The notes under the pieces: generated by a model
Databases searched by the model: none
What the model saw: only the letters and a program-made list of their open reading frames with translations
Told to the model about the DNA's origin: nothing
DNA from: Escherichia phage aldrigsur
Sequence record: MN850592.1
DNA: 42,379 nucleotides
Direction: 5' to 3' (one strand)
Shown: in pieces, positions 6,749 through 31,034 of the stretch
Layout: every line of letters begins with the position of its first letter
Numbering within the stretch: the stretch's first letter is position 1
Position numbers and translations under genes: made by a program

Positions 6749-7978
6749 TTAGTAACCTTGAGCTTTAGCCTGACGGCGCTGCTCTACCAGTGCGGCGTAA
6801 TGCTTGTTGTATTCCGGGGAACCAACAGGATGCGCCTGCTCAAGCCAGCCAAGATGCTGACGGAATGCCTCGTTGGTCATAACCTCACGAGGTGCTTGAC
6901 CGCCACCATTAGGCGTCAAAGTTTGACCAGAACGCTGAATCAAATTCCCTGCGGAACCAGCGAACTGGAGAATGGTGTTCACTGCCAGACGCACCTGATT
7001 AGGGTCGCCGGAGTTCACAGCCGCTACAACGGCATCGACCGTGCCTTTGTCGGCGGCGGTGTTGAATGCCTGTACAGCCAGACCCCATCGCTCCTCGCCA
7101 CCAGCCATCTGGTAAACCTGCTGCTCGATTGCAGCGTCACGCTGCTGACCAGCCGCAACCAGTGCGCCGAATTGACCTTTGAGGATTGATACTGTCTGTG
7201 GGTCGAACTGAGCCAGATAGCGGTCGTTCACCAGAGACGGGTCACGACGCTCGTAAGCAGAACCGAACGCTGCAAGCAGGTCGATGTTCTGGCCACGGGC
7301 AATGGTGTCCATGCCTTGGAATACGGCGCGACTGGTATCGTCCGGGAAAATCTGAGCAACCTGCTCGGAGGTCAAGCCACCTTCCTGAGTAGCCAGTTTC
7401 TCAGCCGTGAGGTTGGGATTCTGGAACTGCTGCGGAGGCTGGCCCGGCTGCTGCTGCAACTGTTGGAATGGCTGCTGCTGCTGTTGAGGCTGCTGTGCCT
7501 GCGGCTGTGCGCCCGGCTGACGACCATACGGGTCGAAAGCATAGGGCTGCGGAGCTACTGGCTGTTGGAACTGTTGTGCCGGAGCCGCTTGGCCCGGAGG
7601 CGTTGCGCCCGGATTCTGATACCCATTAACCGGAATTGGTGGTGCCGCAAACGGAGAGGTCTGCTGCGGAGCACCATACGGGTTCTGCTGAGGTACGGGT
7701 GCGTAAGGACTTGGGTTTCCCTGTTGGGGCTGTGCATACGGATTCTGCTCCTGATAAGGAATCAGGCCCGGCTGCTGTCCGAACGGCTGCGCAGGCTGCG
7801 GGGTAGCGCCACCACGAGGTAACTCGATTGGCGTACCGAGACGGCCTAACGCTGGGTTCTGTACCACCTGTGGGCTTCCACCATAATCATTACCGCTGTG
7901 ACCAGAGGGAGTATAGGTCGGGCCAGCGGGTACGTTTTGGGGAGCGGGTGCGGCAGTAGGTTGGGATTCACCAAACAT
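6749..7978 (-). CDS. Scaffolding protein with ~190-aa Pro/Gln-rich low-complexity N-terminal region, 409 aa
   Basis: Position between portal and capsid genes (synteny); N-terminal half dominated by P, Q, G, Y, A. Confidence 0.6.
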   Translation of the reverse strand: MFGESQPTAAPAPQNVPAGPTYTPSGHSGNDYGGSPQVVQNPALGRLGTPIELPRGGATPQPAQPFGQQPGLIPYQEQNPYAQPQQGNPSPYAPVPQQNPYGAPQQTSPFAAPPIPVNGYQNPGATPPGQAAPAQQFQQPVAPQPYAFDPYGRQPGAQPQAQQPQQQQQPFQQLQQQPGQPPQQFQNPNLTAEKLATQEGGLTSEQVAQIFPDDTSRAVFQGMDTIARGQNIDLLAAFGSAYERRDPSLVNDRYLAQFDPQTVSILKGQFGALVAAGQQRDAAIEQQVYQMAGGEERWGLAVQAFNTAADKGTVDAVVAAVNSGDPNQVRLAVNTILQFAGSAGNLIQRSGQTLTPNGGGQAPREVMTNEAFRQHLGWLEQAHPVGSPEYNKHYAALVEQRRQAKAQGY

Positions 7979-26047: not shown

Positions 26048-26281
26048 TCACTCGACCAGCTCGAAGCCATCGCCCAGTGTTGTCACCACGTTCTCACCGA
26101 TGTCATCCACCAACCACAGCTCGTCATGCAGGCAGACTTCCAAGCCGTCCGGGTCAACCTCACCCGGCTCAGGGCGACGGGCATCGTACACCTTGTCCAC
26201 TGTCAGGTCACGGGCCACAAACTTACCATGATGGGAGGTGTGCTTCCCGGTGTACAGAACCTTCACATTCGCAGCCATCAC
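26048..26281 (-). CDS. Small acidic protein, paralog family 2 (copy c), 77 aa
   Basis: Shares V(R/A)D..VYDA..GE(L/V)DP.G.E..VDD pattern with 26526..26771. Confidence 0.5.
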   Translation of the reverse strand: MMAANVKVLYTGKHTSHHGKFVARDLTVDKVYDARRPEPGEVDPDGLEVCLHDELWLVDDIGENVVTTLGDGFELVE

Positions 26282-26523
26282 AGCACCTCAAACCAGTCGT
26301 TGTAATCAGAGACAAAGAAGTCACACGGATGACCGCTCTCGTCCAGTACAGCTACAGTCTCGTAGCCTGCCACGTCATCAGCACCCTTGCCGTACACTGC
26401 GGCCAGCTTAGGGAACGCCTTGACCAGATTCTCACCCTCAGCAACCAGCACTGCCGGGTACTCATTGCCCACGGTGAACCCGGTGCGGCGCTTGACTACC
26501 TTCAAAGTTACTTTCTTACCCAT
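26278..26523 (-). CDS. Small acidic protein, paralog family 2 (copy b), 81 aa
   Basis: MGKKVTLKVV N-terminus parallels MSKKVRIEII of copy a; ATG at 26523. Confidence 0.5.
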   Translation of the reverse strand: MGKKVTLKVVKRRTGFTVGNEYPAVLVAEGENLVKAFPKLAAVYGKGADDVAGYETVAVLDESGHPCDFFVSDYNDWFEVL

Positions 26524-26525
26524 GA

Positions 26526-26771
26526 TTATTCCCCCAGTTCTTTGATGGTGATGTCTTTGTGGGCTGACACGAACGCCAGACATTCATCGCCTTCATCATC
26601 AACGAAGGAGTAGCCCGGCTCGTCCAGCTCATAGCCTACCGGGTCAAGCTCACCAGCTTCCAACAGCTCAGCGTCATACACCTGCCCAATGGTGGTGTCA
26701 CGCACAGCGCCAGAGAACCAGTGCGGCTGGGATACGTGGCCGATGATTTCAATGCGTACTTTCTTGCTCAT
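26526..26771 (-). CDS. Small acidic protein, paralog family 2 (copy a), 81 aa
   Basis: Tandem with copies b and c, same size class. Confidence 0.5.
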   Translation of the reverse strand: MSKKVRIEIIGHVSQPHWFSGAVRDTTIGQVYDAELLEAGELDPVGYELDEPGYSFVDDEGDECLAFVSAHKDITIKELGE

Positions 26772-26773
26772 GA

Positions 26774-27109
26774 TTATTCCTCGTTGTCAATACCAAACAG
26801 ATACATCTCACCCTCGTAGATGGGAGTGAGAATCTTGAGCCACGTCTGGATAGCCAGCGGCGCGGCACTGTAATGCAGCTCGTTCAGCAGGTCGATGATG
26901 AATGGCCTGCGCCCGGCGTACGCCTTGAAGCGTTCGATGATTTGCTCGTCGCTCGCCTCACTCGTCAGCATCTGCTGCCCTAAGATTTCAATCTGGTCAA
27001 TGACGACCAGCCCTTCCTGACCATCGGGCAGGCGGTACAACAGTACCGCCACGTCTTGCCCATCCGTAATGTCAGGCCCACGGAATACCTTGACCGGATG
27101 CAACGCCAT
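26774..27109 (-). CDS. Hypothetical protein, 111 aa
   Basis: Intact ORF, tightly coupled. Confidence 0.45.
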   Translation of the reverse strand: MALHPVKVFRGPDITDGQDVAVLLYRLPDGQEGLVVIDQIEILGQQMLTSEASDEQIIERFKAYAGRRPFIIDLLNELHYSAAPLAIQTWLKILTPIYEGEMYLFGIDNEE

Positions 27110-27111
27110 GC

Positions 27112-27396
27112 TTAGACCTCGAAGCTACCGACTTCTTCGTAGCCCTTGGCAGGCATGTCAACCGCAGCAGTAGCGTTCAGCGAACCACCGTGCAGCAGGA
27201 AGGCCAGCTCACCCATGCGTTCGATGTCAGCTTGCAGCGACGGCAGCGCAGCCACAGCATCATCAACCGTGTTCAGCTTCGGCACTTCCTTACAGCCGGA
27301 AATGCAGAGTGCGAAGTTGCCTTCTTCGAAGCCGTCACCAACAACAGCCACGATGTCTTTCTCTTGTGCGGAGTAGTATGCAGTTACTTTAGCCAT
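27112..27396 (-). CDS. Small acidic protein, paralog family 1, ~94 aa
   Basis: ATG at 27396 preceded by conserved upstream module (hairpin, GGCAATCATGCC box, CTGAGGG SD). Confidence 0.5.
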   Translation of the reverse strand: MAKVTAYYSAQEKDIVAVVGDGFEEGNFALCISGCKEVPKLNTVDDAVAALPSLQADIERMGELAFLLHGGSLNATAAVDMPAKGYEEVGSFEV

Positions 27397-27464
27397 GGTA
27401 AAACCCTCAGTTAGTTGTGGCATGATTGCCCTACAGCCCACCGCTATGGATGGGCTGACAGAAA

Positions 27465-27737: not shown

Positions 27738-28013
27738 TTACTCGAAGTCAGCCGCGTCTACGTTGTCAGCTTCAAAGCTGGTGATGAAGCGAGGCTCCAG
27801 TGCATTCAGCTTTTCAACCGACAGCTTGCCACCCTGAATGGCAATCAGCATACCGCCGAGGTCTTCCAGCGCCTCGCGCACCTCGCCAATCACCTCGTCA
27901 TGGCTTGCGTCTGGCTTCGGCTGCACACCCAGTGAAGGTGCATTGTCAACAGTCTCGCCAACGATGAAAGCCAGACCGCCGTTGTTCAGGGAAAACACAT
28001 TGATAGTGGACAT
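27738..28013 (-). CDS. Small acidic protein, paralog family 1, 91 aa
   Basis: Conserved upstream module; C-terminus ...DAADFE. Confidence 0.5.
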   Translation of the reverse strand: MSTINVFSLNNGGLAFIVGETVDNAPSLGVQPKPDASHDEVIGEVREALEDLGGMLIAIQGGKLSVEKLNALEPRFITSFEADNVDAADFE

Positions 28014-28078
28014 AATAAATCCTCAGTAGATTGGGGCATGATTGCCGCACTGCCCCGTCGCAACGAGGCAGTAAGGTA

Positions 28079-28773: not shown

Positions 28774-28849
28774 GGTTAATACTCCGAATAGGTTGGGGCA
28801 GAATTGCCATAAAGCCAGCGCCTTGACACTGGCTTGAGTCAATCCCGGC

Positions 28850-29861: not shown

Positions 29862-30254
29862 TTACGCCTCCACTACCCAAAATTGTTCACCATCGTAAGT
29901 CCAAGCGGTGTGCTGCCCGGCTTCCATTTCGGCCTCTGTCTTGCTGACGAACTTGCCAGCAGGCTTGCCCGGATATGGTGAATCCATGAAGATTGCATCA
30001 TCATCTTTGGTCACTACCATGATGCAGTCCTGTTCGAATGCTTTACAGAACAGCTTAACAGCCTGCCTGATTTCGTAGATTCCATCGACAGGAAAGACCA
30101 TGCTTAACTCGTACGCATTGTCGAACTTGCCTGTCAGTGTGACCGGAACCACTCCGAACATATCCTGCACCGTTCGCAGTGCCTTGCAATGAAGCGCCAG
30201 ATTAACACATTCAGCGTTGCCCTGACGATATGCGCTTGCATAGATACGGTACAT
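29862..30254 (-). CDS. First early gene, hypothetical protein, 130 aa
   Basis: First ORF downstream of the tandem promoters; GGAGA SD. Confidence 0.55.
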   Translation of the reverse strand: MYRIYASAYRQGNAECVNLALHCKALRTVQDMFGVVPVTLTGKFDNAYELSMVFPVDGIYEIRQAVKLFCKAFEQDCIMVVTKDDDAIFMDSPYPGKPAGKFVSKTEAEMEAGQHTAWTYDGEQFWVVEA

Positions 30255-30711
30255 AGTTATTTCTCCAGTTGTTGGCTATTTTCAGGTGGATAGTGAACCC
30301 ATTGTGACGCGCCGTACATGTTGCACTAAGTGGCATTGATTGGCTTGTCGGATTCACTACCCTGAAAAATCGCCCCGCCCATTTCGCGCCGTGGATATTG
30401 TCTGCATCCACTCTCAGGAGTCCTCCAGCAGTCCGGCTCACCGTTACCAGCTTGCCTACCTACCCGCTTCACTCCGCGCCTTATAAGACGTTTGGGATTT
30501 TACTGATACTGCGCTGTGTCTATCGCGCTTCTCCGTTCCCTTGCATCAGGCACTACCCCTACGGCGTTAGCATTGTTGCGATACCGTTGCTTTTCAGCGA
30601 TGCCTCTCACCAGTTCCTAGCTGCGCCGGATACCCATGAGACCGTGACACTACGTGGCCAGTTTACGTTCACTCAGAGCAGGTTGTTTTGCAACCTTTCA
30701 ACTCGGTGCTG

Positions 30712-30740
30712 ATTACATCACATCGTATTCAGCGTGTCAA
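30712..30740 (-). promoter_or_regulatory. Sigma70-type early promoter A (TTGACA-17-TGTAAT)
   Basis: Minus strand: -35 TTGACA at 30740..30735, 17-nt spacer, -10 TGTAAT at 30717..30712. Confidence 0.55.
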
Positions 30741-30791
30741 CTACTTTTTACTTCTGACTGACTGGCTTGCTGCCCTGTCAATCTGGTGTGC

Positions 30792-30820
30792 ATTACAGCA
30801 TACTCATTTCATCCTGTCAA
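30792..30820 (-). promoter_or_regulatory. Sigma70-type early promoter B (TTGACA-17-TGTAAT)
   Basis: -35 at 30820..30815, -10 at 30797..30792; shares TATGCTGTAATGC context with promoter C. Confidence 0.55.
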
Positions 30821-30928
30821 CCGATTTAATCAGCGCCCGTTCTGAGATAATTAAACCGTACCAGTTCGCCTACGTGTGTTTTAACGTCTTTATCAATGAC
30901 TGTTTAGCTTGCTGGCTGACGTGGAAGC

Positions 30929-30957
30929 ATTACAGCATAGTGAGCTTGCCTTGTCAA
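30929..30957 (-). promoter_or_regulatory. Sigma70-type early promoter C (TTGACA-17-TGTAAT)
   Basis: -35 at 30957..30952, -10 at 30934..30929. Confidence 0.55.
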
Positions 30958-31034
30958 CACACCAGATTGTTAAAGAGCAGTGTTACCGTCCTACACCGTC
31001 CAACACGTTGACGCTGTGTTGTCCGGCGAGATGA

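Follow-up and report, generated by a model that had tools for sequence, protein, structure and literature searches.

Three small genes that resemble one another lie side by side in the genome of Escherichia phage aldrigsur, and the question is whether they are recent copies of a single gene or relatives of much older separation brought together at one locus. The window analysed here is the complete genome of this phiKMV-type podovirus, 42,379 bp long. Aldrigsur (MN850592) comes from Danish wastewater, was isolated on E. coli K-12, and belongs to the genus Bonnellvirus (PMC7552041), whose members differ mainly in small hypothetical genes (Olsen et al., PMC7552041). A first-pass annotation, made from the sequence alone, had described three adjacent ORFs encoding acidic products of about 80 aa with a common motif pattern, and had interpreted them as a recent tandem amplification selected for dosage or diversification. 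We refer to them as A, B, and C, and the features of the locus are collected in Table 1. All the phage genes that were compared lie on the minus strand of the window. With respect to the altidsur record, the aldrigsur sequence is reverse-complemented and circularly permuted; the order annotated in altidsur is SAM lyase, about 16 small hypothetical genes, primase/helicase, DNA polymerase, RNA polymerase, and structural genes.

Table 1: Features of the A-B-C locus and of its early-region surroundings in the aldrigsur window.
Feature	Position	Strand	Description
Gene A (aldrigsur_35)	26526..26771	-	81 aa, pI 4.3; A-clade; identical to P0006
Gene B (aldrigsur_34)	26278..26523	-	81 aa, pI 5.0; divergent B-clade
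Gene C	26048..26278	-	76 aa, pI 4.6; C-clade, the most widespread type
Variable cassette	26065..26746	.	from whole-genome blastn against altidsur and breakpoints
Left-flank gene, 111 aa	26774..27109	-	65-100% identical in 13/13 genomes compared
Right-flank microgene, 50 aa	25839..25991	-	conserved; Tyr/His/Gly-rich; MSGSTYNAHANQISYAGYCALGGASNPNLMSRAVYLGGHYMHHEYYLIRG
Right-flank gene, 94 aa	25552..25836	-	conserved; matches phrog_18383
Junction repeat, copy 1	26757..26780	-	GGAATAATCATGAGCAAGAAAGTA; end of the 111-aa gene, RBS, and first 5 codons of A
Junction repeat, copy 2	26509..26532	-	GGAATAATCATGGGTAAGAAAGTA; end of A, RBS, and first 5 codons of B
Stem-loop	25992..26050	-	directly after the last family gene; shared 3′ cassette boundary in all relatives
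TTGACA-N17-TGTAAT repeats (family D1), three of ~32 nt	30710-30741, 30790-30821, 30927-30958	-	~4 kb upstream of A-B-C
S-AdoMet lyase gene	29862-30254		Pfam PF23780, E 1e-27

The three genes are tightly packed: neighbours are either 2 nt apart or have a stop codon that overlaps the next start, and each has a Shine-Dalgarno-like sequence upstream. C had been drawn as the ORF 26048-26281, which begins at a GTG one codon farther upstream; its start is most likely the ATG at 26278, since the resulting 76 aa match the length of the C orthologues, and this ATG overlaps the TGA stop of B by one base (TGATG). Between orthologues the dN/dS was 0.09-0.31 overall (0.09-0.31 for A and 0.18-0.31 for B), which indicates that all three ORFs do code for protein and are kept by purifying selection. 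The other ORFs of the window gave no further match to the family HMM.

The relationship among the three proteins was examined pair by pair, comparing Smith-Waterman scores with those of 2000 composition-preserving shuffles. A and C scored 78 against 25.6 ± 4.9 for the shuffles (z = 10.6, 0/2000 as high), and by this measure they are clearly homologous. The A-B score of 46 was marginal (z = 4.6, 3/2000 shuffles as high), and B-C, with a score of 22 (z = −0.5), gave no signal above the background of the 2000 shuffles. It is with profile methods, and with these only, that B is placed in the family as a divergent member. The comparison of the A/C profile with the B profile by hhalign resulted in a probability of 92% (E 6e-7), and an HMM built without any B-type sequence assigned to B 15.4 bits, the best of 2000 shuffles reaching 11.3. 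MAFFT aligned B with the family from end to end, including the C-terminal F-E-V motif; with respect to the other members B is missing about 10 residues of the first (β1-β2) loop, and 12-17 extra residues follow its conserved GE. Its homologues in other lineages (L012_3852, P0085) retain the E-IVE end of the family. Considering the background score of B-C and the marginal score of A-B, it could be argued that the resemblance of B to A is due to chance, and that only A and C are paralogues, product of a duplication and not of a triplication. This is highly improbable, taking into account the hhalign result, the rank of B above 2000/2000 shuffles in the HMM from which its own type had been left out, the full-length alignment with its F-E-V motif, the E-IVE end of B-type proteins elsewhere, and the location of B at the same locus as other members.

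The resemblance among three adjacent ORFs that had been noticed at the outset is therefore present, carried by the pairwise score for A and C and by the profiles for B. The motifs listed at that time are all common to A and C, but B has only MxKKV, xEYxA, GE, and xDExG. Something similar occurs with the acidic character, which holds for A and C (net charge −12 and −9) but is mild in B (−3), and unrelated neighbour genes are about as acidic.

The AF2 model of A was a β-barrel with a pLDDT of 89.8, and that of B (pLDDT 94.6) had the same order of five β-strands, with the insert at residues 33-44 forming two short helices. Both models were built from one 25-sequence alignment, so that the shared fold is not independent evidence for the homology of B. 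Each of the three proteins is predicted to be a small SH3-like β-barrel. The best structural matches in BFVD were proteins of the PHROG 17459/23195 type and their relatives, all of them uncharacterised phage proteins. At the sequence level A matched phrog_17459 (E 2.4e-7) and C matched phrog_23195 (E 1.4e-16), neither of which has a known function; B had no PHROG match below E 0.1. PHROGs splits the family into separate groups, with no member of described function; these groups and their relatives are small early proteins encoded by phiKMV-type podoviruses of enterobacteria (Bonnellvirus, Drulisvirus, Koutsourovirus). Searches of A, B, and C against Pfam, NCBIfam, and PADLOC gave no HMM match (E ≤ 1), a profile search of PDB sequences returned only chance RCC1 matches (E > 0.5), and no published work on these early genes turned up in the literature searches.

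An exhaustive profile search collected 159 clusters (50% identity) at E ≤ 1e-3, 45 of them at E ≤ 1e-10, and the family extends over Bonnellvirus, Drulisvirus, Koutsourovirus, and a myovirus. The members are mostly stand-alone proteins of 68-90 aa. Two giants with fn3 repeats (P0157, P0158) in the list, together with P0027 (giant, multi-stretch) and P0096 (weak Bac_thur_toxin match), were set aside as probable false positives by partial motif. By tblastn, C-type genes were found in 35 phage records, 29 of them of Klebsiella phages and several located 2.5-3 kb from the left genome end, A-type genes in 7 records, and B-type genes in 3. The C-type carriers whose taxonomy was checked are Klebsiella phages of Drulisvirus, Koutsourovirus (Enterobacter), and the Edwardsiella myovirus MSW-3. 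The positions that hardly vary among 147 members, in the numbering of A, were D25, T27, G29, Y32, G40, E41, G46, D58, D59, G61, and D62, and the hypervariable, indel-rich segments were 11-23, 42-55, and 69-75; B-type proteins do not have D25 and D62.

Some forms of the family depart from the single stand-alone domain. Two-domain tandem fusions were seen in P0032, P0033, P0040, and P0067, and from them it follows that tandem gene duplication and then fusion has happened elsewhere in the family. In P0075, P0147, P0151, and P0154 the domain is N-terminal in proteins of 160-330 aa, in whose C-terminal extensions no Pfam domain was detected, and hence no Rosetta-stone clue. The region 6235-6717 of L010 is also listed among the fusion or longer-protein forms. 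In Klebsiella phage KP-Rio/2015 (L023) a clear member at 2733-2975 (HMM E 1.4e-20) falls in an unannotated gap of the RefSeq record, and there is a second one at 7605-7823.

The age of the three copies was judged from their divergence. Codon-aligned, A, B, and C are 23-40% identical in residues and 46-52% in bases, and their dS of 1.4-2.0 is saturated; the flanking genes, compared between aldrigsur and altidsur, have a dS of 0.015-0.07. Nucleotide similarity among the copies is confined to the 24-nt junction repeat and to a 22-nt stretch encoding GE(V/L)DP(D/V)G. The grouping of each copy is with orthologues in other phages (57-98% identity) and not with the genes at its side. For A, a metagenomic contig has a counterpart at 99% identity, and the A′ genes stand at 57-62%; the B genes of altidsur, HHU8, and LF82-23 match B at 74-85%, and those of type C in megetsur and mellemsur match C at 67-68%. 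Neighbour-joining placed the three in deep clades, a different one for each, that also include genes of other phages. A distant contig, L012, shares only 30-68% identity with the window in its conserved early proteins; it has genes of type C and type B, the latter with the same helical insert, and one further member. The coexistence of B and C types in this contig indicates that the subfamilies predate these phage lineages. From the divergence and the grouping of their sequences, the three genes are paralogues that separated long ago within a single phage-specific family, whose proteins have about 75-85 aa.

The recent amplification proposed at first pass is refuted by these values, given that the copies are not each other's closest relatives, and they are too different for a reading in terms of dosage. 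A recent triplication in situ of one gene, kept for dosage, would leave homologous genes adjacent and on the same strand, as these are, and the two copies of the 24-nt junction stand exactly one gene unit apart, the spacing expected after an unequal crossover. Nevertheless, half of the bases and most of the residues have changed and dS is saturated, closer orthologues of each copy exist in other phages, the subfamilies coexist in distant ones, and the loop architecture of B differs, so that the copies are not interchangeable doses; such a triplication is then extremely improbable. Homologues that stand side by side in a phage are no evidence of recent amplification.

A comparison of the locus among relatives supports ancient paralogues being re-assorted. 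Between the same ends, the 111-aa gene on one side and the pair of 50-aa and 94-aa genes on the other, 8 architectures were found among 13 genomes. Aldrigsur and contig ERR5234162 have A-B-C, altidsur and contig SRR35864872 have B-A′, megetsur and mellemsur have A′-C, LF82-23 has B-X-A′, and BHUENT7 has X-A′; in HHU8 the order is B, a remnant of 13 codons of A′, A′′, and Y, and in contig SRR32130093 it is B followed by a frameshifted A′. A′′ was also seen as the lone family member among the relatives. X, Y, and Z are modules unrelated to the family that occupy the same locus. The number of family copies was between 1 and 3 in 25/25 loci scanned, and the window has the maximum seen. The same A-B-C array was present in an independent metagenomic contig (L017); scans of IMG/VR for the locus gave 0 and 1 loci.

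The genomes of aldrigsur and altidsur align collinearly by blastn at 98% identity, with the variable cassette as the one exception: nowhere else in the 42.4 kb does the identity fall below 93% or the alignment fail. Inside the cassette, the B gene has a dS of 0.49 between the two phages, compared with 0.015-0.07 in the flanks, which points to the import of an allele and not to local mutation. We have here a clean natural cassette swap of about 700 bp, the sole hot spot separating two near-identical coliphages that were both isolated on E. coli K-12 in the same survey. The suggestion of diversification was a reasonable one, considering that this is the only strongly divergent segment between phages of 98% identity, but it has to be altered in the sense that old subfamilies have been re-assorted.

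The traces of turnover can be seen in two of the relatives. In HHU8 (L005, ~2610-2690) the first 13 codons of A′ run into the last codons of Z, with a GGTCAT microhomology at the join, and in contig SRR32130093 (L018, 2770-3141) A′ is frameshifted (P0020); both cases indicate dispensability and turnover of the family genes. Gene Z, a signal-peptide gene, was seen in RZ4 and Kc261.

The ends of the genes are short conserved sequences. The two copies of the 24-nt junction (repeat family D9) are 92% identical and 248 nt apart, the distance of one gene unit, and their consensus, GGAATAATCATGrGyAAGAAAGTA, is also located before B in altidsur, LF82-23, and HHU8. Owing to the presence of this same junction before A, the protein begins with MSKKV as the B-type genes do, and its A′ relatives begin with MARSI. 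At the other end, the arrays all finish in ...VE-stop followed by the stem-loop, which is the same after C, A′, or A′′ in the relatives. Its RNA fold had an energy of −21.9 kcal/mol (z −3.4), and 0/200 shuffles folded as well. Around module Y the stem-loop is duplicated, with a compensatory change from ACAGCC/GGCTGT to ACTGCC/GGCAGT.

The duplicated junction, the shared hairpin, the gene remnant, and the frameshifted copy argue for recombinational shuffling, and as far as the compared genomes show, the locus is a recombination-shuffled accessory cassette in which types A, A′, A′′, B, and C are sometimes mixed with X, Y, and Z. The A-B-C array would have been assembled by recombination among pre-existing subfamily genes, and not by amplification in situ, with crossovers at the short conserved boundaries, that is, the junction at the gene start and the ...VE-stop with the hairpin at the 3′ end. 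The events were presumably unequal or illegitimate recombinations at these shared boundaries, whose order and direction cannot be reconstructed from these genomes. We consider this evolutionary part of the explanation, an array of ancient paralogues shuffled at an accessory cassette, to be very probable.

Immediately beside the hypervariable cassette lies the gene of a strongly constrained protein, the 50-aa microprotein of the right flank. It was 100% identical in most relatives, including megetsur, at a nucleotide identity of 89%, and its dN/dS was 0.03. The microgene has no annotation in altidsur.

The location of the cassette gives some indication of when its genes may be expressed. The A-B-C block has the promoter-like repeats and the SAM lyase gene on its upstream side and the primase gene downstream, and by position it would be part of the early region, presumptively transcribed by the host RNA polymerase. 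The three repeats between 30710 and 30958 are probably a cluster of strong early promoters for this polymerase, comparable to A1-A3 of T7. They escaped the consensus scanner due to the G at position 2 of the −10. No promoter or terminator consensus was found inside the A-B-C block.

T7-type phages have variable regions of accessory early genes, as is the case of T7 genes 0.3-0.7, among them Ocr, and of the SAM lyase of T3. A, B, and C are similar to these genes in being small, mostly acidic, dispensable, and variable between close relatives, and in their location after early promoters and near an anti-restriction gene. They differ from them in that no homology to characterised early proteins of T7 or T3 was found in the Pfam and PDB profile searches, and in that the variation here centres on a single locus and a single family of paralogues. 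Variable cassettes of accessory early genes are an ordinary kind of phage feature, and it is the family that is uncharacterised. Small variable early genes have been the source of many phage proteins of counter-defence or host take-over. One known small phage protein that recurred among the hits is Gp54 of Escherichia phage Bas11 (PDB 9AXB), of 66 aa, non-essential, which triggers the CapRelSJ46 defence (PMC11578894). It was rejected as a homologue, with an hhalign probability of 0.4% and no appearance in the PDB profile search up to E 10; it belongs to another phage family (Drexlerviridae), and its structural score against the family was at the level of a generic fold.

With respect to function, the proteins may be dispensable early proteins that bind host factors, each of them one, in counter-defence or host take-over. 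The early position, the small size, the dispensability, the purifying selection within subfamilies, and the difference between phages at this locus are what suggest it, and we propose this part only tentatively. The conserved core with its acidic set (D25, E41, and D58-D59-x-G61-D62) would act as scaffold or common site, the three indel-rich loops would set the target specificity, and the presence of several different paralogues would broaden the range that the phage can neutralise. Taken as a whole, with its evolutionary and functional parts, this explanation seems to us probable. That the locus is a hypervariable counter-defence cassette, and that its products form a new class of phage inhibitors, small and SH3-like, in which the acidic core is conserved and the specificity loops can be exchanged, is a doubtful proposal. 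If it were true, each of A, A′, A′′, B, and C would neutralise its own host defence, or its own allele of one, and re-assortment mediated by the junctions would explain the sole difference between aldrigsur and altidsur.

Other functions have to be weighed against the binding of host factors. The acidity of A and C, the predominance of Asp and Glu among the near-invariant positions of the 147 members, and the location in the early region downstream of the anti-restriction S-AdoMet lyase could be explained if the proteins were DNA mimics, with an action like that of Ocr or ArdA, whose acidic residues would imitate the phosphate backbone and block restriction or nucleases of the RecBCD type. The very high negative charge together with a structural match to known mimics, proper of Ocr and ArdA, was not found, and we consider this function quite unlikely. 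It could also be thought that the genes are near-neutral passengers, and that the variation is owed only to recombination-prone short junctions and not to selection by host diversity, considering that copies are lost, truncated, or frameshifted in relatives and that the unrelated modules X, Y, and Z take the same locus. This is unlikely since, as the dN/dS values indicate, there is purifying selection on every subfamily; the family is also kept across several genera with its near-invariant motif set, and useless genes would seldom be kept in a compact lytic genome of 42 kb. As for A, B, and C being subunits of one machine, a hetero-oligomer, and not independent effectors, the translational coupling of the genes by their 2-nt spacers and overlapping stop and start, as well as the existence of two-domain fused members, would be consistent with it, but an obligate complex would not allow what is seen among the relatives, where 1-3 members occur in any combination (B with A′, A′ with C, A′′ alone); we consider it very unlikely.

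Two further observations concern the early region at large. The genes at 27738-28013 and 27112-27396 were examined as a second paralogue pair, which was unsupported (z 2.85, 46/3000 shuffles as high); one protein of L012 matches both early proteins (E 1e-23 and 7e-4). A conserved intergenic element of 39 nt, with core GGCAATCATGCCCCAA...CTGAGG, was found at 27401-27439, 28017-28055, and 28779-28817, in each case immediately upstream of the RBS of an early gene, those starting at 27396, 28013, and 28773. The copy at 27401 heads the packed block formed by a 94-aa gene, the 111-aa gene, A, B, and C. This element could be a phage promoter, a processing site, or a translational element. In KP-Rio/2015, "promoters" found by MEME are annotated at similar positions of its own early region.
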